In this document: one piece after another, positions 12,653 to 61,265 of the stretch
How positions within the stretch are numbered: the first letter of the stretch is position 1
Layout of the letters: each line of letters begins with the position of its first letter
NCBI GenBank assembly: GCA_963770095.1
Contig: CAVYOO010000003.1
Coordinates: 594,382-658,381, forward strand
DNA: 64,000 nt
Source of the DNA: an uncultured Acidimicrobiia bacterium
Lineage (GTDB): Bacteria > Actinomycetota > Acidimicrobiia > IMCC26256 > JAENVU01
Direction: 5' to 3'
Notes under the pieces: model-generated
Database searches by the model: none
Told to the model about the DNA's origin: nothing
What the model saw: the letters and a program-made list of their open reading frames with translations, nothing else
Translations under genes and position numbers: made by a program

Positions 12653-13282
12653 TTACCGCAGCGCGGCGCGGACCTGGCTCCGCCACGGTTCGGGGCAACC
12701 CCAGTAGGTGATGCCACCGGCCGCCGTCTCGGCGGGGTACAGCACCCACGCGACACAGTCCGCCACCTTCTCGGAGTCGTCCCATGCGCTCCCCGCGCGC
12801 ACCACGGGTGCGCCGGCGACCGCGGCGGTGAGCGCGGCGGCTCGTACCGTCTTGATGTGCACACTGTGGGCGAGCTCGTGCACGGTGACGTAGGTCAATC
12901 GTGCCGGGCTGGCGAACGCCGTCTGGCCGATCCACACGTCGTTCGGCGCCGGGTTGTACCCGCCCGCGTGGCAACAGGTGTCGAGCGGGTTGTAGCCGTA
13001 GTGGACGGTTGCACCGCCTTCGGACAACAACCGCGGCAACGTCGGGAGCAGCGCGTCGAGCTGGGCGTTCCCGGTGGCGTAGGCCACGGCCGCCAACACC
13101 TGTGCCGGCGGAGCAGTCGTGGTGGTCGTGCTGGGCGTACTGGACGTGCTGGTGCTCGTTCGCAGCTGCGACTGGTCGGGCGGCGCCGATCGCGCGGCGT
13201 CCGCGCGATACCCGCAGCCGGCGAGCGCGGCGACGGCGATCCCGGCGGCGAGCCAGCGAGCCGATCGAGGGAGCGGGCGCAC
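12653..13282 (-). CDS. Lipoprotein with Ser/Thr-rich linker and HExxH-containing domain (putative secreted metallopeptidase-like)
   Basis: Lipobox AALAGCG. Low-complexity STSTSSTPSTTTTTAPP linker. HELAH motif in the C-terminal domain. Confidence 0.5.
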   Translation of the reverse strand: MRPLPRSARWLAAGIAVAALAGCGYRADAARSAPPDQSQLRTSTSTSSTPSTTTTTAPPAQVLAAVAYATGNAQLDALLPTLPRLLSEGGATVHYGYNPLDTCCHAGGYNPAPNDVWIGQTAFASPARLTYVTVHELAHSVHIKTVRAAALTAAVAGAPVVRAGSAWDDSEKVADCVAWVLYPAETAAGGITYWGCPEPWRSQVRAALR

Positions 13283-13568
13283 GGATACCTCGGTTGCGAG
13301 TCAGTGAGCACAGGCCCCATCGAGCTGGGGCCGGTTTCGCACTGGCTTCCCGCAGGCTCATGCGACCAGTTGGATCGCCTGCGGATCAACGCCTCCCTGA
13401 GGTGTGACCTGTTCCCTCCAGTGTGCGCCAATTGCCACAAAACGGCCATAGGGCGCTGGACCTGGATCTCACACGGATCGGACCCGGGTCAGCCGCGGCG
13501 CCGCCCGGCGTTCGAGAACGGAGATTCCGGGCGTAGGGTCGCGAGGTGCAGCGGATCAGGGGTCGTCG

Positions 13569-14024
13569 GTGCGGGCTCGTGAAATGACGAAGTCTGCAGA
13601 CCGGTGGCCGTTCGGCTCCAGTGACGGCGGGCCGGCGAGTCGGCCGGGCGTGGTCGAGATGGAAGGCGTGCTCGTCGCCATCTTCGAGAACGACGCGGCG
13701 GGGGACCACGCCCTCTCGGCGCTCCGGGAGCAGGGCATCGACGAGCAGAACCTGCGGTTCTACACGAGTGCGCAGATCCTCGTGTACGAGGAGCACTTCC
13801 AGAGCGACCGCACGCTCTCCGGTCGGCTCATCGGCGGCTTCGTCGACGATGCGGACTCGATGGCGCAGTACGTCGAGTTCGGTCGCGAAGGACGCTCGGC
13901 CGTGTGGGCGCTGGTGCCGATCCGCGAAGATGCCAACCGGGTCGTCCGCAAGCTCGCCGACGAGAAGACGCTCTTCATCTGGTACCACGGACAGGATCAG
14001 GTCGAGACGATCCCGATGGCATGA
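13569..14024 (+). CDS. Hypothetical protein
   Basis: High-GC3 ORF. True start may be the internal MEGVLVAIFEND. Confidence 0.45.
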   Translation: MRAREMTKSADRWPFGSSDGGPASRPGVVEMEGVLVAIFENDAAGDHALSALREQGIDEQNLRFYTSAQILVYEEHFQSDRTLSGRLIGGFVDDADSMAQYVEFGREGRSAVWALVPIREDANRVVRKLADEKTLFIWYHGQDQVETIPMA

Positions 14025-26673: not shown

Positions 26674-27249
26674 GTGGCGATGGAGATGCCGACCGTCGGG
26701 TGGGAGCGCCGGACGCGCGAGCGGCTGATCTCCGGCGACGAAGCCGCACTCGGAGACTGCTACGACCAGTTCTCCGCGTTCGTCTACGGCCTCGTGCTGC
26801 GCGTCCTGCGGGACGCCAAGGCCGCGGAGGACATCACCCAGGATGTCTTCCTCAGCCTCTGGGAGTGCCCGGATCGCTTCGATCCGGGGAAAGGCGCGCT
26901 CCGTACCTGGCTCGGCACGCTCGCACACCGCCGCGCGGTGGATCACGTACGCCGCGAGGAAGCGCGCCGCCGCCGCGACGAAGCGGGGGCCGGCCGGATC
27001 GCGTCGATCCCCGACGTGGAGGAGATGGCGCTGGCGTTGATGACGTCCGAGCGGGTGCGCGAGGCGCTCGAGGGGCTATCGCCCGAGCAACGCGAGGCGA
27101 TTCACCTCGCGTACTTCGACGGTAAGACGTACCGGGAAGTCGCGGTCTGCATGGGCATACCGGAGGGCACCGCGAAATCCCGGCTCCGGCTCGCCTTGCG
27201 GCGGGTCGCGAGCACACTCGAGTCAGAGGATCTGCGCCAATGGCCATGA
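26674..27249 (+). CDS. ECF sigma factor
   Basis: DITQDVFLSLWECPDRFDPGKGALRTWLGTLAHRRAVDHVR (region 2) and LSPEQREAIHLAYFDGKTYREVAVCMGIPEGTAKSRLRLALRR (region 4). Confidence 0.85.
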   Translation: MAMEMPTVGWERRTRERLISGDEAALGDCYDQFSAFVYGLVLRVLRDAKAAEDITQDVFLSLWECPDRFDPGKGALRTWLGTLAHRRAVDHVRREEARRRRDEAGAGRIASIPDVEEMALALMTSERVREALEGLSPEQREAIHLAYFDGKTYREVAVCMGIPEGTAKSRLRLALRRVASTLESEDLRQWP

Positions 27250-27278
27250 CCAGTTCTCGCGGTGGCGCCGGTGGCGGT

Positions 27279-27776
27279 TCAGCGTTCGGGAGGTCCGAGG
27301 ACGAACTCGAGTCGCTGCCAGTCCTGGATGCCGCACGAGTTCGTGCGCTCCACCTTCACATCCACCGGATTGCCGCGGATCACCCCCTTGATCGTGGCGT
27401 GCTGCGGTCCGCCGAACACCTCCGCGCACGCCACATCCACGTCCGCATCGTCAACCCCGACCTGTTCGAACACCGCCGCCTGGGCGTCAACCGCGAAGCA
27501 CACGTCAACCGCGGTCGCTGCGAACATTCCCGTGCCGGTTGACTGGTCCCCGTCACAATCGAGAGTGCCGGAGATGTTCACCTCGGTCGCCCCGCTCTCC
27601 GGGATCGGACCCGGTTCGGAATCGGGGTCCGGCGCGACCGAGCCGCGGCCCAGCGTCGCGACCCCCTCGATCTCGAGGTGCGTCCCCGAGCGGGTCGGCC
27701 CGCTCGAATCCGATCCACACGCGCCGAGCACCAGGACCAGGAGGACTGTGAGGCCGGCACCCCATCGAATCGGCAC
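27279..27776 (-). CDS. Small secreted lipoprotein (unknown function)
   Basis: GTG with GGAGG upstream. Signal plus lipobox LVLGACGSD. 4 Cys in the mature part. Confidence 0.45.
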   Translation of the reverse strand: MPIRWGAGLTVLLVLVLGACGSDSSGPTRSGTHLEIEGVATLGRGSVAPDPDSEPGPIPESGATEVNISGTLDCDGDQSTGTGMFAATAVDVCFAVDAQAAVFEQVGVDDADVDVACAEVFGGPQHATIKGVIRGNPVDVKVERTNSCGIQDWQRLEFVLGPPER

Positions 27777-27802
27777 GCCTCCATGGTGCCTGACCGGGGC
27801 GG

Positions 27803-28591
27803 TCAGTGGGTGGTCATGCCCCCGTCGATGACGAGGACCTGACCGGTCATGAAGCTCGACGCGTCGCTCGCGAGGTAGAGGGCGCCGTCCGCGAGCTCCT
27901 CGGGGGTGCCCATGCGCTTGATCAGGGCGGCGTCCGTCATCCGTTGCTGGGTCGCTTCGTCGTTGTTGCGGACCATGTCCGTGTCGGTCGTTCCCGGTGC
28001 CAGCGCATTGACGCGGATGCCCGCGGCGGCGAATTCGGCGGCCATGGCCCGGGTCATCGTGAGCATCGCGGACTTGGCCGCGCAGTACATGGAGACGTAC
28101 GTGCCGTGAGTGAAGGCGCCCGCGCTGATCACGTTGACGACCGCGGCGTGATCGCTCGCCAGGAGGTGGGGAAGCGCGTACTGAAAGAGGAACAGCGGAC
28201 CGCGCAGGTTCACCGCGTGCGACTTCTCCCAGGCCTCGGGCGTGATCGAGCCGATCGGGAGGCCGAGTGCGTTGGCGGCGTTGTTCACGACGATGTCGAC
28301 GCCACCGAGCTGGTCGACGGTGGCGGCAACGAGCGCTTCGAGCTGGCCGAGGTCGCCCGCGTGGGTCGGGACGGCGATCGCCCGCCCACCGCTGGCCTCG
28401 ATCTCGCCGGCAACCTGCGCGCACGCATCGGCCTTGCGGCTCGCGATGACGACGGCCGCACCGGCCGCGGCATAGGTCTGCGCGATGGCCCGGCCGATGC
28501 CACGGCTCCCGCCGGTGATGATGGCGACCCGACCGGTCAGGTCGTAGCGCGCCTGGAGCTCCTGTCGGGTCCGCATCGCCATGTTGCGCAC
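27803..28591 (-). CDS. SDR-family oxidoreductase
   Basis: TGGSRGIGRAIA (TGxxxGIG), NNAA, YCAAKSA (YxxxK). Intact. Confidence 0.9.
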   Translation of the reverse strand: MRNMAMRTRQELQARYDLTGRVAIITGGSRGIGRAIAQTYAAAGAAVVIASRKADACAQVAGEIEASGGRAIAVPTHAGDLGQLEALVAATVDQLGGVDIVVNNAANALGLPIGSITPEAWEKSHAVNLRGPLFLFQYALPHLLASDHAAVVNVISAGAFTHGTYVSMYCAAKSAMLTMTRAMAAEFAAAGIRVNALAPGTTDTDMVRNNDEATQQRMTDAALIKRMGTPEELADGALYLASDASSFMTGQVLVIDGGMTTH

Positions 28592-28620
28592 GTTACCCGC
28601 CTGCTTGAATCATCCCCTGA

Positions 28621-28922
28621 GCGAAGTGGGGACACCACGCGGGTTGTGGGGCGCGACGAGCGGAGCGTGGCCCGAGCGGCCCGGTCCGAAGGACCGTGAG
28701 CGGGAACGGTGAGCGAAGTGGGGACACGACGCGGGTTGTGGGGCGCGAAGAGCGGAGCGTGGCCCGAGCGGCCCGGTCCGAAGGAAGTTGAGCGGGAACG
28801 GTGAGCGAAGTGGGGACACGACGCGGGTTGTGGGGCGCGAAGAGCGGAGCGTGGCCCGAGCGGCCCGGTCCGAAGGACGGTGAGCGGGAACGGTGAGCGA
28901 AGTGGTGACACCACGCGGGTTG
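28621..28922. repeat. Tandem direct repeat, 92-bp unit x about 3.3 (copies at 28621-28712, 28713-28804, 28805-28896, partial 28897-28922)
   Basis: Direct read: unit GCGAAGTGGGGACAC(C/G)ACGCGGGTTGTGGGGCGCGA(C/A)GAGCGGAGCGTGGCCCGAGCGGCCCGGTCCGAAGGA...GAGCGGGAACGGTGA. A few substitutions between copies. Confidence 0.85.
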
Positions 28923-30108
28923 AAGATCTCCGGCGATCGGGCCCGGCGCATCGCGCTCGGGGGCGCAGGGTTTCGCGGCCTCGCGCCCGAGCGGCAAGGT
29001 CGATCGGCGCCACGTGCGCAAGGTGCTGTCGAACGTCGGCCTGATCCAGATCGACTCGGTGAATGTCGTCGTGCGCTCGCAGGAGCTGCCGCTGTTCGCT
29101 CGGCTCGGGCCGCATCGTCGGGACCTGCTCGGCGGCATGGTCGCGGACGGCGAGCTGTTCGAGTACTGGGGTCACGAGGCGTCGTTGCTCCCCATCGAGG
29201 TGTTCCCGCTCATGCGGTGGCGCATGGACGCGGCGGGGGCCAAGGCCGCGGGTTGGAGCGGGCTCGTCCGCCTGGCTACGGAACGGCCCGACTACGTCGA
29301 AGCGGTGTTCGCCGAAGTGCGGGAGCGTGGGTTGATGGCCGCCTCCGAGCTCGACGACCCCGGCGCGAAGTCGGGGCCCTGGTGGGGCTGGCGGCACGGG
29401 AAGCAGGCCCTCGAGTACCTGTTCTGGTCCGGGCGCCTCTCCGCCCGCCGCCGTAGCAGCTTCGAGCGGGTCTACGACCTGACGGAGCGGCTGATCCCGC
29501 CGGCCTGGTTCGGCGCGCCGGTGCCGACCCCGGAGCACGCGCACAAGGACCTGCTGGTTCGCGCGGCGCGGGCGCACGGCATCGGGACCGCGCGTGACCT
29601 GGCCGACTACTACCGGCTCAACGTCCCGTACGCTCGTCCCCTGTTGGAGGAGCTCGTCGCGGAGGAACGGCTGCTCCCGGCGCGCGTCGAGGGCTGGAGC
29701 CAGCCGGCCTTCGTCCATCCCGAGGCCCGCACCCCGCGCCGGATCGAAGCGCGCGCGCTGCTCTCACCGTTCGACTCCCTGATCTGGGAACGGTCGCGTA
29801 CCGAGCGCCTCTTCGACTTTCGCTACCGGCTGGAGATCTACACGCCGAAGCCGAAGCGGGTTTACGGCTACTACGTGCTGCCGTTCCTGCTCGGTGACGC
29901 GCTCGTCGCCCGGGTGGACGTCAAGGCCGAGCGGTCCGACCGGGTGTTGCGCGTGCGCGGTGCATTCGCCGAGCCGGGCCACGACGCGGCGACGATCGCG
30001 GGACCCCTCGCCGAGGAGCTCGCGCTGCTCGGAGGGTGGCTCGGACTCGATCGCGTCGTCGTCGACAACCACGGCGATCTCGCTCCCGCGCTCCGCCGCG
30101 CCACCTAG
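28893..30108 (+). CDS. Winged-helix YcaQ/AlkZ-like (DUF1006) DNA glycosylase; frameshift in GGGGG run 28959-28963
   Basis: GTG at 28893 lies inside the last repeat copy. MSEVVTPRGLKISGDRARRIAL in frame 0, then after the G5 run GAQGFAASRPSGKVDRRHVRKVLSNVGLIQIDSVNVVVRSQELPLFARLGPH (family N-terminal consensus). Rest of the 364-aa ORF intact. Confidence 0.7.
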
Positions 30109-30976: not shown

Positions 30977-33075
30977 ATGGGCATCGTCGGAACCGTCATC
31001 GTGGTGGCGTTGATCGTCCTGGTCGTCGTGTGGGTCTACAAGTCGATCCACCTGATCGGGCCGACGGAGGTCGGGCTGGTCAACAAGCGGTTCGCCTTCC
31101 GCAAGCTGCCCGCGGACAACCCGATCGCCTTCCATCACGAGGCCGGGTTCCAGGCCGCGTTGTTGATGCCGGGCCTGCGGATCAAGCTCTGGCCGATCTT
31201 CGCGGTGCAGAAGCACCCGTGGGTGCAGGTGCCGGCCGGCGAGATCGGGGTCGTCATCGCGCAGGTCGGGGACGAGCTGCCGATCGGCGCGAAGAGCGGT
31301 GTGTACCAGGAGGTCTTCGGGAACTTCTCGAACCTCGGCCAGTTCATCGAGCTCGGCGGCCAGAAGGGGGTCCAGCGCCCGGTGCTTCCTCCGGGGACGT
31401 TGATGCCGGTCCACCCGGTCGCGTTCCTGGTCCTGACGCCGCAAGCCGTGTACGGGTTGCCCGTCTCACCCGACCTGGTCAGCGCGAGCAAGGCATCGGG
31501 CGGAGTGCTCAGCCCGGCGTCGTTCGGCCTCGCCCCCGAGCAGCTGCGCGTCGTGGTGATCGCGCCGCAGGGTCCGCTCGACACGGTCGGCATCGTGACC
31601 GTGCTCGAAGGTGAGCCGTTGAGCTCCGGTGACATCGCCAGCCGCCTGGGCGGCTACGCGGACATCGCGGAGATGGAGTCGGTTGCGGACACGCCCACGT
31701 CAGAGACCGACGCGATGGTCATCGAGATCCTGCTCGGCTCGAAGAACGTCCTGCACAACAACTACCAGGACTTCCAGGCGTTCATGGAGCACGGCGGGAA
31801 GATCGGCCTGCAACACGACCCGCTGCTTTATGGCGCCTACCTGCTCAACCCGTTCCTCGTGCAGGTCGAGATGGTTCCGATGCTCGTCGTGAACCAGGGC
31901 GAGGTCGCGGTCATCAAGGCCTTCGTGGGTCTGCCGACCCTCGACACCTCGGGCACGGAGTTCAAGTTCGGCTCGATCGTGCGTCCGGGACATCGCGGCA
32001 TCTGGCAGGAGCCGCTGCGCACCGGGAAGTACCCGATCAACCCGCGCTGTTACGCCGCCGAGATCGTGCCGACGTCGATCCTGACGCTCAACTGGTCCAA
32101 GGAGACGAGCGCGTCGCACAACCTCGACGCCCAGCTGGCACCGATCGACGCGAAGAGCCGCGAGGGATTCGTCTTCTTGATCGAGCTGCAGGTGCAGATC
32201 CACGTGCCGGACACCAAGGCGCCGAAGGTGATCTCGATGGTCGGGACCATGCTCAACCTCGTGAACGAGGTGCTGCAGTCCGCCGTCGGCAACCACTTCC
32301 GCAACACGCTGCAGGACCAGCCTGCGGTCACGTTCATCGAGACCCGCATGCAGGTGCAGGTCTCGGCGCTCGAACACGTCACCGAGTATCTGCAGCTCTA
32401 CGACGTGGAGACCAAGGGCGTGTACATCCAGAACGTGCACTTCCCCCAGGAGCTCGTCGAGGTGCTCACCAAGCGCGAGATCGCCAACCAGGAGAAGGCG
32501 ACGTACGAGGAGATGCAGCGTGCGCAGACCTCGCGGATCGAGATGGAGAAGGCCAAGGGCACCGCAGACATGCAAGGGCAGCTCGCGTCGGCCCAGGTGA
32601 ACGTGGAAATCGAGCAGAACCGCGCGAACGCGCGCCAGGCGGAGGCGCAGGGCGAGGCGGCCTACGTCGAGCTGACCGGAAAGGCCGAGGCGACCCGGGT
32701 GGAGGCGATCGGTCTCGCGAACGCCACCGCCACCGAGGCGCTCGGGGTCGCGCCGCGACCGGGTTCGAAGCCCAGAAGGAGGCACTGGGCGAGACCGCGA
32801 CCGCGTTGGTGGCGGTGGCGAACGCGGTGTCGGAAGGTCACATCACGGTCGTGCCCGAAGTGCTCGTCACCGGTGGAGGCGGCAGCATCGAAGGCCTCGC
32901 GGCCACGCTCATGCGCACATTCGGTGGCAAGGGGACGGGGAACGGCAAGGATCCCGCGATCGCGCCGGCTCAGGCGACGGTGGATGCACCCCCGCCGGAC
33001 GCCGAGATCGCGGACGTCGACATGAACGCAGCTGACGTCACCAACAGTGAGCCGATTCCGCCGCCCGCGCCGTAG
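30977..33075 (+). CDS. Flotillin-like SPFH/band-7 protein (YqiK/FloT-type); frameshift at about 32745
   Basis: ATG with GAGAGGAGCAGG RBS. N-terminal TM (IVGTVIVVALIVLVVVWV), SPFH domain, long Ala/Glu/Gln coiled coil (EMEKAKGTADMQGQLASAQVNVEIEQNRANARQAEAQGEAAY). C-terminus continues in another frame (ORF 32806..33075). Confidence 0.75.
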
Positions 33076-51467: not shown

Positions 51468-51580
51468 GTTCGTCTCCCTCTCGACGGACTCCCGTGACCG
51501 GGAGCGACGGTTGGACGTCGGCGGCGCGCTGGTAGGTTCCCGGACCGTGACGATTCCTCCGGGCGCGCGGCGACGGCTAC

Positions 51581-52444
51581 GTGGTCACGAACGGCATCCG
51601 GATGTACTTCGTCGAGCAGGGAACCGGACCGCTGGTGCTGCTGTGTCACGGGTTCCCGGAGCTCTGGTACTCGTGGCGCTTCCAGCTCCAGCCGCTCGCG
51701 GACGCGGGGTTCCACGTCGTCGCCGTGGACATGCCCGGGTACGGTCGCTCCGACAAGCCCGACGTGCACTACGACATGGAATGGGTCAACGTGTGCTCGC
51801 CGGTGTGATCACCGGGTTGGGTCACGAGCGTGCGGTCCTCGCCGGCCACGACTGGGGCGGTCTTCTGGTCTGGCCGTTCGCGCGGCGCCATCCCGAGCTG
51901 ACGGCCGGGGTGATCGGGGTCAACACACCGGATCTTCCACGAACGCCCATCCCGTTCGTCGAGATGCTGCGCAACATCTTCCCGGACGAGCCGCCGTACA
52001 TCGTGCAGTTCCAGGAGCCCGGGGTGGCCGAGTGGGTGCTGTCGTGGGGTCGCGGCGCGATCGACTTCCTCGAGCTGATGCTGCGCGGGCTCGTCACGGT
52101 GAACAAGGACGCGTTCCCGGACGACGTGCTCGCGGTGTACGCCGACGCGCTCAGCCCCCGCGGCCGCGTTCACGCCGCCCCTCGAGTACTACCGGAACCT
52201 CGATCGCTCTTGGCACCTGACCGCGGATCTGGCCGACCTCACGATCGACGTCCCCTGCCTGATGATCAGCGCGGAGAACGACCCGGTCACGACGCCGGCA
52301 ATGGCGGAGGGCATGGAGGCCCGGGTGCCCGATCTCGAGAAGGTCGTCATCCCCAATTGCGGCCACTTCACCCAACAGGAGCGGCCTGCGGAGACCACGT
52401 CGGCCATGCTCGGCTACCTCCGCCGGCTCGATCCCTGGCCGTGA
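51581..52444 (+). CDS. Alpha/beta hydrolase (epoxide hydrolase/haloalkane dehalogenase-like); two frameshifts at about 51785 and about 52190
   Basis: LLCHGFPELWYSWRFQ (HGxP plus W), then AVLAGHDWGGLLVW (nucleophile Asp), then ...LEYYRNLDRSW...VIPNCGHFTQQERP (His) spread over three frames. Confidence 0.7.
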
Positions 52445-52500
52445 CCGGTCCGACCGGTTCTTGCCCGTAGGTCCGGATCTGTTCCAAAGTTGTCGCCGGC

Positions 52501-53127
52501 ATGCAATCGACACCGTCCGACTCCGGCCCAGCAGGGGCGGGTACGGACCCTTGGCTCGACCCGCGCCGTGACTTCAGCGGTGAAACCTCGGGCGACACCG
52601 TCCTCGAGCCGAGCGAGCATCCTGGTACCCCGACGGTCGTCCTGCGGGCGCGTCTCCTATGGCGCCTTTCCGTGCTCGGGCTCCCGATCCTCGGCGCGGC
52701 GGTGGTCGCGTCCGGGCGCTGGTCCGGCATCGCCCTGCTCGCCGTCGCCGTCCCGTTCGCGCCGGCGCTCTGGATCCGCATCGAGCTGGGCGAGGCGTCG
52801 ATCCGGCGCCGCGACTGGCGCGGGCGGAAGTCCACGGTGACATTCGACTCCGTGGACGCGCTGCGCTTGCGGCGCGTTCCGTTCGCGGCGTTGAGCTGGT
52901 TGCCGCGCGGCTATCGACTGGGGCGATTTTGGTCCGTGCCACTCACGCTCCGGTTGCAGCACGGGGAGAACGTGTCCTTCGAGATGCGCTGCGTATGGTG
53001 GGACGGGTGGCGGAACGTCGCTCGCTACGTTGCCGCCCGGCCCGGCATCGATCTCGACGCACGGACTCGTGGACGGCTCGGGCGCTACGTGGGCCCGATC
53101 GCGTTCGCGTCGGCCGACCAGCCGTAG
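52501..53127 (+). CDS. Hypothetical membrane protein (PH-like)
   Basis: Two TM helices (LSVLGLPILGAAVVASG/WSGIALLAVAVPFAPALW) then a soluble domain. High GC3. Confidence 0.4.
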   Translation: MQSTPSDSGPAGAGTDPWLDPRRDFSGETSGDTVLEPSEHPGTPTVVLRARLLWRLSVLGLPILGAAVVASGRWSGIALLAVAVPFAPALWIRIELGEASIRRRDWRGRKSTVTFDSVDALRLRRVPFAALSWLPRGYRLGRFWSVPLTLRLQHGENVSFEMRCVWWDGWRNVARYVAARPGIDLDARTRGRLGRYVGPIAFASADQP

Positions 53128-54161: not shown

Positions 54162-54932
54162 TCAGGCTCTCCGGGCCGCGAGCCCGCCGTCGAGCGGGAT
54201 GGTGGTCCCGCTGATGTACGCCGAGTCGTCCGTGGCCAGGAACATGATCGTCTCGACCACGTCCACCTCGGTGCCGAGCCGACCCATCGGCGTGCGCGAC
54301 GCGACCATCTGCTTGATCGACTCGGGGTCCGGCGCCTTCGAGACCATCTCGAGGAACAGCCCCGTCTCGCACGCGCTGGGCGAGACCACGTTGACCCGCA
54401 CGCCGTCGGCCGCGTGCTCGATGGCGGCCTGCTTGGCCAGGTTCACCAGCGCACCCTTCGAAGCGCAGTACGCCGCGTAGCCGGGTGAGCCGATCGCACC
54501 GAGGATCGAACCGAGCAGGATCACCGAGCCGCCACCCGTGCCCACGATCGGCGGGAGCCCGTGCTTCATGCACAGGAACGGACCCTTGAGGTTCACGTCG
54601 AGGACCTGTCGCCACGCGGCGTCGGTCGTGTCGATCACGGACGCGCGGGTCTCGACCGCGGCACTGCAGACGAGCACGTCGAGCCGGCCGTGCTGCTCCA
54701 CGATCGCCTCGAACATCGCGGCAACCTCACCCTCATGGGTGACGTCGACCGTGCTCGGTTCGGCATCCCCACCCGCGTCGGCGATGGCGATCGCGACGCG
54801 TCGGGCTTCGTCCTCGTCGATGTCCGCCACGATCACCGTGGCGGACTCGCTCGCGAGCCGCTGGGCGGCCGCGGCGCCGAGCCCGGATCCACCACCGGTG
54901 ACGACCGCGACCTTGCCGGCGAGACGTCTCAT
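54162..54932 (-). CDS. SDR-family oxidoreductase
   Basis: VVTGGGSGLGAA, CSAAV, YCASKGA. ATG overlaps the stop of the upstream SDR (ATGA). Confidence 0.85.
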   Translation of the reverse strand: MRRLAGKVAVVTGGGSGLGAAAAQRLASESATVIVADIDEDEARRVAIAIADAGGDAEPSTVDVTHEGEVAAMFEAIVEQHGRLDVLVCSAAVETRASVIDTTDAAWRQVLDVNLKGPFLCMKHGLPPIVGTGGGSVILLGSILGAIGSPGYAAYCASKGALVNLAKQAAIEHAADGVRVNVVSPSACETGLFLEMVSKAPDPESIKQMVASRTPMGRLGTEVDVVETIMFLATDDSAYISGTTIPLDGGLAARRA

Positions 54933-55693
54933 CGCAGTGCCGCCAGCCCACCGTCCGCGGGGATGACCGCGCCGGTCGTGTACGCGGAGAGGTCCGATGC
55001 CAGAAACAGCGCGATGCCGGCGACGTCCTCCGCGGTGCCGAGCCGGTGCAGGGGGATCGTCTGCTCGAGATCGGGCAGGAAGTTCACCGGCATCGTCTCG
55101 GCGACCTTCCGGAATCGTGGCGTGTCGATCGAGCCGGGCGCGATGACGTTCGCCCGCACCGCGGGCCCGTACTCCGTGGCGATCTGGCGCATGAGCGCGA
55201 CCAGCCCCGCCTTCGCCGGGCCGTACGCCGCGTAGCCCTCGGACCCGATCAGGCCGAGCACCGACGCCGTGCTGATGATGCTGGCGTTCCCGGTCTCGAT
55301 GAGGTGGGGGAGCGCGGCGCGACACGCCCAGAACACGGCGTCGAGGTTCGTCGCCATCGTGAGATCCCAGTCGTCCTCGCTCGTGTCGACGAGGCGGCCC
55401 GACATCTGGACCGCCGCGTTGTTGTAGAGGATGTCGAGCCGCCCGAAGTGGTTGATCGCCATCTGGACCATCGCGTCGCAGTCCATTCGCTGGGAGATGT
55501 CGGCGTGCACCCCGATGCCGCTGCTCCCGGCCGCGTCCACCCGCGCGATGGTCTCGCCCGCGCCGTCGTCGTCGAGATCGGCGACCACGACTCGCGCGCC
55601 CTGATACGCGAAGAGAACGGACGCGGCGCGGCCCTGACCCGACGCGCCCCCCGTGATCAGCGCGACCCGTCCATCCAACAGTCCCCCGGACAC
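54929..55693 (-). CDS. SDR-family oxidoreductase
   Basis: LITGGASGQGRA, NNAAV, YGPAKAG. Confidence 0.85.
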   Translation of the reverse strand: MSGGLLDGRVALITGGASGQGRAASVLFAYQGARVVVADLDDDGAGETIARVDAAGSSGIGVHADISQRMDCDAMVQMAINHFGRLDILYNNAAVQMSGRLVDTSEDDWDLTMATNLDAVFWACRAALPHLIETGNASIISTASVLGLIGSEGYAAYGPAKAGLVALMRQIATEYGPAVRANVIAPGSIDTPRFRKVAETMPVNFLPDLEQTIPLHRLGTAEDVAGIALFLASDLSAYTTGAVIPADGGLAALR

Positions 55694-59725: not shown

Positions 59726-60494
59726 TGCGCCCATCACGGTCGACCGCCCGCTCTTCACGTTCGAACACGCCGGCCTCGTCGGAGCCGACGGTCGGGACCG
59801 GTTGGTCGATGTCACCGGGGAGGTCGCGCCCGATGGCGTGACCGTCGTCGTCGGTCCGTCCGGCGCCGGGAAGTCGAGCCTGCTGCGGCTTTGCAACCGA
59901 CTCGAGGTCGCGGACCGGGGTTCGGTGCGCTTCCGTGGTGAGGATGTCGCAGGCATGGACCCCCTCGCGTTACGCCGCCGCGTCGGGATGGTCTTCCAGA
60001 CGCCGACCCCGTTTGCCGGGACCGTGTTCGAGAACCTCCGCGTCGCGCGTCGCGATCTGGACCCGGCGGCGGCGGAGCAGGCGCTCGAACGGGTCGAGCT
60101 CGACGCCTCGTTCCTCCCCCGACCGGCGTCCGAGCTGTCGGGCGGTGAGGCGCAGCGCATGTGCCTCGCGCGGACCCTCGTGACCGGCCCCGAGGTCCTG
60201 CTCATGGACGAGCCGACGTCCTCGGTCGACCCGCAGGCGACCGTCGCGCTCGAACAGCTGGCGCGGCAGCTCCTCGACCACGGAGTCGTCTGCATCTGGG
60301 TGACCCACGACCTCGCGCAGATGCGCCGCCTCGCCGATCAGGTCCTCGTCGTGCTCGACGGCTCGATCGCGCAGGCCGGCCCACTCGCCGACCTCGATCG
60401 GGACGCATCACCGGCGGTCGCTCAGTTCCTCCTCGGCGCGGACGATCCTGCGCCCGGCGAGCGAGCTCACGGAGACCCGGGGGAACATGGCTGA
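59722..60494 (+). CDS. ABC transporter ATP-binding protein, FetA/YbbL-like; likely frameshift at the extreme 5' end
   Basis: GPSGAGKSSLLR, LSGGEAQRMCLARTL, LLMDEPTSSVD. Coding frame (DAPITVDRPLFTFEHAGLV...) opens just after the ATG at 59722 but out of frame with it. TTG at 59802 is the first in-frame start. Confidence 0.75.
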
Positions 60495-61265
60495 CATCGG
60501 CTGGAGCGGGCTGGCGATCTCGCTGGTGCTCGTCGGGATCGCGATCGGACTCTCGATGTGGCGCGGGCTCGGCCTCGAGCGGAGCATCGCGTGGGCAACC
60601 GTGCGCGCGCTCGTGCAGCTGCTCGCGGTGGGCCTCGCGCTGCAGGTGCTGCTGCGGCCCGAGACGTCCCTCGGGTGGTCGGTGCTGTGGGTGCTCGGAA
60701 TGATCGTGTTCGCCGCCGAGACCGTCCGCCGCCGCGCCGCGAGGTGCCGCAGGTGTTCCCTCTCGCGCTGGCCGCGTTCGGCGCCGCGGCGGTCGTCGTG
60801 CTCGGGGTCCTGTTCGGCTTCGGAGTGTTCGAGCTCGACGCGCGGACGCTCATCCCACTTGCGGGTCTGATGATCGGGAACTCGATGACCGCGACGGTGC
60901 TCGTCGCGCGCCGGCTCGTGGAGGAGCTGCGCGACAAGCGGGCCGAGGTCGAGGCCCGGCTCGCGCTCGGTCAGCCGTCCGTCGACGCGGCCGCTCCGTA
61001 CGTCCGCAACGCGCTGCGGACCGCGCTCGTGCCCCAGATCGAGACGACGAAGGCGGTCGGCCTGATCTTCCTGCCGGGGGCGATGACCGGCCTGATCCTC
61101 GCCGGGGTCGACCCGCTGGAAGCGGTGCAGGTGCAGGCCGCGGTGATGTTCGTGGTGCTCGCGTCCGCGGCGACGACCACCGCGGTGGTTGCCCTCGGGG
61201 TCCGCCGGCGGCTGTTCACGGCGGATCACCGGTTGGTCCGGCTGGAGCGGACCGCCGAGCGCTGA
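60487..61265 (+). CDS. ABC permease FetB/YbbM-like (UPF0014); frameshift at about 60745
   Basis: MADIGWSGLAISLVLVGIAIGLS...AAETVRR then +1 frame ...VFPLALAAFGAAAVVVLGV...MIGNSMTAT...PGAMTGLILAGVDPLEAVQVQAAVMFVVLA. Confidence 0.7.

Follow-up and report, generated by a model that had tools for sequence, protein, structure and literature searches.

A tandem array at an alkZ start codon as a probable MIRU-like interspersed repeat of Acidimicrobiia

MIRUs and the array at the alkZ start codon

The closest described systems are the interspersed repetitive units of mycobacteria (MIRUs), which, according to PMC12548453 (citing Supply et al. 1997), insert at start codons and carry a coupled internal open reading frame (ORF) with a -4 spacing. 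The senX3-regX3 spacer of M. tuberculosis contains a three-unit MIRU array (PMC4213456). Here we describe a 92-bp tandem repeat at the start of an alkZ/ycaQ-like DNA glycosylase gene (hereafter alkZ) of an uncultured Acidimicrobiia bacterium, located in a 64,000-nt stretch of contig CAVYOO010000003.1 that was analysed as a whole (the window). The array probably represents 3 1/3 tandem copies of a dispersed Acidimicrobiia interspersed repeat of about 56-95 nt with MIRU-like architecture.

For comparison, the senX3-regX3 spacer of M. tuberculosis was fetched (locus L051). Its array comprised 77 bp x 3.1 copies, a unit length of 2 mod 3; it overlaps the senX3 stop as ATGA, and its units overlap one another and regX3 as TGATG. 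Database proteins for RegX3 with 245-277 aa (P0121-P0124) have N-termini extended by reading through this MIRU array (positions 1355-1593 of the locus).

In the window, Tandem Repeats Finder placed the array at 28618-28922 (period 92 bp, 3.3 copies, 95% matches, score 561) and detected no second array scoring at least 80, which bears out the 3.3-copy, 92-bp repeat reported in a preliminary description of this DNA. Pairwise identity among the three full units was 87-90/92, and 25- and 37-mers from the unit core occurred three times each, against 0 expected by chance. The composition of the unit was non-coding, and the SDR and AlkZ-like genes diverged from the spacer holding the array, both as first described. 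The features of the locus are as follows.

27803-28591, minus strand: short-chain dehydrogenase (SDR) gene, divergent; identified from its ORF and the Pfam family adh_short
28581-28712, plus strand: ORF0, ATG start, 43 codons, from the 5' end of the SDR gene (opposite strand) through unit 1
28592-28617, no strand: ancestral 26-bp SDR/alkZ spacer, kept in relatives (..CACGTTACCCGCCTGCTTGAATC..); identified from the relatives' loci
28618-28709, plus strand: repeat unit 1, 92 nt; Tandem Repeats Finder, in-register alignment and family hidden Markov model (HMM; E=3e-16)
28709-28804, plus strand: mini-ORF 1, GTG start, 31 codons, TGA overlapping the next GTG
28710-28801, plus strand: repeat unit 2, 92 nt; Tandem Repeats Finder, in-register alignment and family HMM
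28801-28896, plus strand: mini-ORF 2, GTG start, 31 codons, TGA overlapping the alkZ GTG at 28893
28802-28893, plus strand: repeat unit 3, 92 nt; Tandem Repeats Finder, in-register alignment and family HMM
28893-30108, plus strand: alkZ/ycaQ-like DNA glycosylase gene, intact only after removing one G of 28959-28963
28894-28922, plus strand: incomplete fourth unit of 29 nt within the coding sequence of alkZ; identified from alignment, relatives and L031
28959-28963, plus strand: run of five G (G5), place of the +1 frameshift in alkZ; GGT/GGGC in relatives, which is one base shorter

The two 31-codon ORFs joined by GTGA were present as originally reported, and a second GTGA chain was found in another frame (28696-28791, 28788-28883 and 28880-29044). 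The TGA of ORF0 overlaps the GTG at 28709, and the third GTG(A), at 28893, opens MSEVVTPRGLKISGDRARRIALG. Unit 1 begins ccccTGAGCG, which gives its mini-ORF a CTG in place of the GTG of the other units. A GTGA chain arises automatically in any stop-poor unit of this length because 92 = 3x31-1; what makes the mini-ORF chain meaningful as a design feature is that the element family described below keeps the same phase throughout.

Seven related loci (L001-L007), in which alkZ was 79-89% identical, shared the gene order ECF sigma factor, lipoprotein, SDR (minus), AlkZ (plus), VIT1 (minus) and Band_7, and their SDR-alkZ gap was only about 26 bp with no repeat; the array is therefore an insertion. 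The window holds 3x92+18 = 294 extra nt between the conserved spacer and the K-I-S-G-D-R-A-R-R codons. The alkZ homologues carried the names Acidimicrobiia or Acidimicrobiales, and the element-free ones start MSEVK(M/V)S (P0012), whereas the window protein starts VSEV-VTPRGL-KIS. VTPRGL is encoded by the last 18 nt of the partial fourth unit (GTGACACCACGCGGGTTG), and since the relatives are without these residues, the six alkZ codons (5-10) come from the truncated fourth unit. A search of other assemblies with the exact AlkZ and SDR proteins found no record of the same strain.

The closest of the relatives, L001, carries at 508-548 a 13-codon upstream ORF (uORF; ATG..TCGTGA) that begins at the ATG of ORF0 and has a GTGA overlap with the alkZ start; alkZ may therefore have been uORF-coupled already before the insertion. 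As to the neighbouring genes, an MDMPI_N-domain gene that lies between the ECF sigma-factor and lipoprotein genes in those relatives whose sequence reaches this region (L002 and L004-L006) is absent here (27249-27803), and two tandem SDR paralogues at 54180-54923 and 54944-55678 (minus strand) showed about 31-33% identity to the repeat-adjacent SDR.

The dispersed family and how it compares

Searched against one genome per species, the exact 22-mer CCCGAGCGGCCCGGTCCGAAGG occurred at five loci: three Acidimicrobiia metagenome-assembled genomes (MAGs) accounted for four of them, and the remaining one was in a MAG carrying the label Bifidobacteriaceae. A degenerate 3' motif matched 38 loci in metagenome contigs, about 20 of which were clear relatives; the metagenome sources of family copies were soil and lake. 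Elements of 56-95 nt were thus present at no fewer than 15 distinct loci (at least 15, in Acidimicrobiia MAGs and metagenomes), and the family HMM scored members at E 1e-8 to 1e-19. All other members seen were single copies at unrelated places, in contrast to the 3.3-copy array here. Matches in L013, L018 and L021 (SDBT01 contigs) were chance motif matches beside an unrelated repeat of GCCTGCC / GGTAGGCAGG units. The element had no blastn match in PLSDB plasmids, its core motifs had none in full-text literature searches, and no description of such repeats in Acidimicrobiia was found in the limited library that could be searched.

The 5' end of the element reads (A/G)TGAGCG(N)AGCG and is followed by a variable stretch of about 25-30 nt. 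The conserved core is AGCG(N)AGCG-TGGCCCGAGCGGCCC-GGTCCGAAGGACC-(A/G)(G/A)GAGCGG(G/A)A(A/G)G, then (A/G)TGAGCG, and the usual target/terminal motif is xTGAGCG. Within the conserved 3' half (AGCGGAGCGTGGCCCGAGCGGCCCGGTCCGAAGGACCAGGAGCGGGAAGG) there is a purine-rich stretch that resembles a Shine-Dalgarno sequence, and this half finishes at the start codon of the downstream gene. A long upstream ORF terminates at the TGA of the 5' motif, and a long downstream ORF begins at the 3' ATG/GTG. According to Pfam, the flanking genes have unrelated functions: Peptidase_M24 then EF-P, cation efflux then DUF305, and phosphoribosyltransferase (Pribosyltran) then sulfotransferase, as well as Rieske oxygenase, chlorite dismutase and SDR; the genes downstream of other copies include efp, an SDR gene, DUF305 and sulfotransferase. 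Two other copies, L031 and L050, carry the 5' sequence of the window unit (GGGGACACG.CGCGG..), and the independent copy in L031 has GGGGACACGTCGCGGTCG where the window shares 29 nt with alkZ. L022 has two elements, at 1036-1092 and 1416-1474 (85-nt and 58-nt forms), one on each side of a 109-codon gene that follows a Rieske oxygenase gene; the shorter one is without the variable region, and a hairpin GGCCC-GTCA-GGGCC replaces GGTCC-GAA-GGACC.

The phase of the element was expressed as the distance d between two TGA triplets, the upstream one and the one that overlaps the downstream start. Values of d were 56, 83, 86, 86, 89, 89, 89, 92 (five loci), 95 and 95, and 14 of the 17 loci fell at 2 mod 3, where one third is expected by chance. 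A length of 2 mod 3 means that the mini-ORF bridges both genes with 4-nt overlaps at each end, and 12 of about 15 full junction members had an in-frame ATG/GTG one base before the upstream stop, giving ATGA/GTGA overlaps at both ends. Orthologous insertions differed by multiples of three (95 nt in L019 against 89 nt in L037).

This architecture agrees with that of MIRUs in several respects. Both have units of tens of bp (the MIRU criterion is 40-100 bp; here 56-95 nt) that are dispersed intergenically at start codons, an internal ORF that runs in the direction of the flanking genes and whose first codon overlaps the preceding stop and last codon the following start, and a unit length of 2 mod 3 (77 and 53 bp in MIRUs, 92 bp here) that yields a tandem ORF chain. 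Three tandem units stand directly upstream of a gene, as in senX3-regX3, and neither has a transposase or terminal inverted repeats.

However, the family HMM gave no match on the M. tuberculosis senX3-regX3 MIRUs, the best pairwise alignment (GAAGTGGGGACACGACGCGGGTTGTGGGG vs GAGGTGGGGGCACCAC-CCGCTTGCGGGG) was equalled by 5-10% of controls (p ~0.05-0.1), and the host belongs to the class Acidimicrobiia rather than to Mycobacterium. The family is not a member of the MIRUs for these three reasons. The two also differ in their unit junctions, which are GTGA (4-nt overlap) here but TGATG (1-nt) in the M. tuberculosis array; in the hypervariable 5' half and conserved 3' half seen here; and in the location, which is a divergent promoter region here instead of an intergenic spacer within an operon. 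MIRU arrays vary in copy number from strain to strain; here one array has 3.3 copies, and every other family locus seen has one.

Two other known systems bear a likeness to the locus. As in uORF termination-reinitiation (PMC12548453), there are 4-base overlaps between each mini-ORF stop and the next start, and by analogy the short ORF would merely deliver ribosomes to the next start; here, however, the uORF is part of a repeated, apparently mobile sequence that is iterated three times. REP/BIME, ERIC/IRU and MITEs (e.g. PMC2759123) are likewise short, non-autonomous, dispersed intergenic repeats, sometimes with ORFs, but they are defined by palindromic or terminal-inverted-repeat structure, which was not found here, whereas what defines the Acidimicrobiia family is where it sits, and in which phase, with respect to start and stop codons. 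By analogy, the family would work like a MIRU and be of a known kind, with no new regulatory principle. The initial impression that no mechanism of this form had been described does not hold, as PMC12548453 describes MIRUs with start-codon insertion and a coupled ORF.

Alternative explanations

If the mini-ORFs encoded a functional small-protein family (..SGAWPERPGPKDQERKR), the repeats would be gene copies. The ORF and its frame are indeed kept across members with in-frame indels, and the 3' half at orthologous loci was conserved about as strongly as the flanking genes (81-89% vs 78-89% identity). However, the 5' half, and with it the N-terminal half of the peptide, was scrambled between orthologues (43-55% identity), and codon-position GC in the variable half was 0.73/0.79/0.71, without the signature of genes (~0.72/0.51/0.90). 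The mini-ORF peptides had no Pfam match, the conserved region takes in the Shine-Dalgarno-like stretch and the start of the next gene, and in the short copy L022b the conserved nucleotides are read in another frame, with both overlaps retained. In these comparisons phase rather than peptide is conserved, and the peptide does not look selected. A small-protein family is thus an unlikely explanation.

The copy number, or the array itself, could also be an assembly artefact, and over a distance of 4 kb the conserved genes of this assembly do carry no fewer than two single-base indels (alkZ 28959-28963 and Band_7 ~32750). Nevertheless, the units differ at specific positions (GGACCGTGAG, GGAAGTTGAG and GGACGGTGAG, for example), which is not expected from stutter, and arrays of this kind collapse rather than expand in short-read assemblers. 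A length of 300 bp is easily spanned by long reads, and the 785-kb contig together with the indel-type errors suggests a long-read assembly. The element is moreover attested independently at other loci. We consider an artefact improbable, to about the same degree as the small proteins.

The alkZ indel lies close to the array. The AlkZ-like product contained a PF06224 domain (E=2.9e-68). The preliminary description had taken the GTG at 28893 as the glycosylase start and had missed the frameshift behind it: this GTG does open MSEVVTPRGLKISGDRARRIALG and, in the same frame, ARRIALG, but AQGF..RPSGKVDRRHV (AQGFAASRPSGKVDRRHVRKV) stands in the next frame and is reached only when one G is removed. 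In the uncorrected assembly, the frame opened at 28893 stops at 29456, and 29014 is the first position of the longest ORF and also of the database protein for the locus (P0001), a 364-aa truncation. Deletion of one G from the G5 run gave a 404-aa product whose N-terminus aligned with 27 close homologues, all reading ..(V/L)S..RARRIALGAQGFGVPRPTGRVDRRHVRR.. uninterrupted, and only then was the conserved N-terminal ..ARRIALGAQGF..RP.G.VDRRHVR.. matched. L001 (89% identical) has GCGCTCGGTGCGCAGGG in place of GCGCTCGGGGGCGCAGGG in the window.

The Band_7 (flotillin-like) gene, 4 kb away and 701 aa in relatives, was also frame-split, with residues 1-602 at 30977-32782 and residues 595-694 at 32758-33051 in another frame, due to a 1-nt deletion relative to L004 in the CGCGCGCG stretch (~32750-32782). 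As there are two single-base indels in conserved genes within 4 kb, these frameshifts are probably assembly indel errors and not two pseudogenes, and the alkZ gene is probably intact in reality. Frame segmentation across the window by GC content at the third codon position (GC3) was too noisy to give a frameshift rate, and Band_7 alone was verified against a relative. The same segmentation showed short same-strand alternations of coding frame at 51554-53122 and 60446-60727, which could be small genes or additional indel errors.

Slightly less probable still is a structured RNA that regulates in cis as a leader or in the manner of a riboswitch, or a REP/MITE-type palindrome acting via a stable hairpin. 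RNAalifold did recover two small recurring hairpins, GGCC-N5-GGCC and GGTCC-GAA-GGACC, and one copy carried a compensatory change (GGCCC-GTCA-GGGCC). However, the covariation term was 0.02 kcal/mol with one compensatory pair of nine, individual sequences folded no more stably than shuffles (z -1.1 to +0.9), and the inverted-repeat search found no terminal inverted repeats at the unit ends. Rfam gave nothing on the repeat region at E<=10 other than a 16-bit chance match and nothing on the repeat when the whole window was scanned at gathering thresholds, and the functions of the downstream genes are unrelated. A scan of 28300-29100 found no promoter or terminator sites; the unit is without a TANNNT -10 box because it contains no TA dinucleotide. 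Elsewhere in the window, Rfam matched a c-di-GMP-II-GAG riboswitch at 13321-13405 (minus strand; 43.6 bits vs a gathering score of 40), which sits in a 546-nt stretch of non-coding composition (13103-13648).

The local origin first proposed, which sees the units as tandem copies of the alkZ promoter and 5' coding end that have diverged and lost internal sequence, is highly improbable: although alkZ 28894-28922 agrees with the beginning of each unit at 27-28/29 positions and GCCCGAGCGGC recurs at 28985, homologues of the whole unit, these 29 nt included, occur at unrelated places in other genomes (L031, L050, L016 and others), the match at 28985 is at chance level, and the repeat-free relatives start alkZ with MSEVK.. 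and without the VTPRGL codons. The stretch shared with alkZ is element sequence and not gene sequence, since L031 and L050 carry it. A comparison of the unit with the 5' coding region of alkZ gave no similarity beyond chance; about 3% of equal-sized chunks of the window align to the unit as well, and several other 11-mers of the unit also recur elsewhere in the window. Nor did anything link the array to the repair function of alkZ; other copies precede unrelated genes.

Proposed mechanism and meaning

In the MIRU-like reading, an element sits at a gene start codon, with its 5' end supplying or overlapping the TGA stop of the upstream gene and its internal mini-ORF starting and ending in ATGA/GTGA overlaps with the upstream stop and the downstream start. 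A ribosome translating the mini-ORF would terminate on the next start codon and reinitiate there, which would keep the downstream gene translated, and the insertion would thus be tolerated. At the present locus, the element would have entered at the alkZ start (ancestral xTGAGCGAAGTG-AAG) and then multiplied to three units, presumably through slippage or unequal recombination. Together these would form a relay from ORF0 through mini-ORF 1 and mini-ORF 2 to alkZ, with the fourth-unit remnant adding six codons; by analogy, the purine-rich stretch of each 92-nt unit and the GTG overlapping the preceding TGA would hand ribosomes from unit to unit and onto alkZ. Translation of the mini-ORFs, their coupling, the mobility of the element, the route of amplification and an effect of copy number on alkZ are what we infer from this arrangement. 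A copy-number-variable locus acting via uORFs, as the preliminary description had suggested among other options, is a reasonable reading.

Several points weigh against the MIRU-like reading. Translation and coupling are deduced from geometry, and the openness of the mini-ORFs alone carries no weight because stops are rare in all frames (0, 0 and 3 across the three frames of the elements). The locus is atypical for the family, being a divergent promoter region with no co-directional upstream gene; the relay would therefore have to start de novo at the ATG at 28581 or at internal GTGs, as there is no same-strand upstream gene and unit 1 has CTG. The consensus 3' motif is degraded in units 2 and 3 (GGAAGTTGAG and GGACGGTGAG), and since members were gathered with fixed 3' motifs, the apparent conservation of the 3' part is inflated. 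Among about 25 loci there was no other tandem array of the family, and the 64-kb window held no further copy when scanned by blastn-short, by two nhmmer profiles and by two exact-core searches allowing 3 mismatches. No transposase, terminal inverted repeats or clear target-site duplication was found, and mobility is suggested by presence/absence and dispersal in the sequences compared.

More tentatively, and with rather more doubt than belief, the elements can be seen as an undescribed, widespread, mobile 'ribosome-relay' mini-ORF family in Acidimicrobiia, convergent with or anciently related to MIRUs; a weak collinear motif (GAGCG.AG / GTGGGG.CAC.AC / TTG.GGGG) hints at the ancient relationship. 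Its conserved 3' half would be under selection at orthologous sites, making it a host-adopted intercistronic translation module, and its copy number would tune a crosslink-repair glycosylase at this locus.

To our knowledge, the movement of MIRUs, their tolerance and any function are unsolved; most work on them has treated them as typing markers within a single genus. The Acidimicrobiia elements are a second, sequence-unrelated family of the same geometry, in an uncultured actinobacterial class of soil and freshwater. They offer comparative material for telling design needs (phase and a Shine-Dalgarno-bearing 3' half) from incidental features. Such elements mislead gene callers, giving N-terminal extensions and spurious small ORFs in databases. 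With this second family, start-codon insertion, stop/start overlaps and a length held at 2 mod 3 via in-frame indels emerge as a general means by which small repeats survive in gene-dense genomes.

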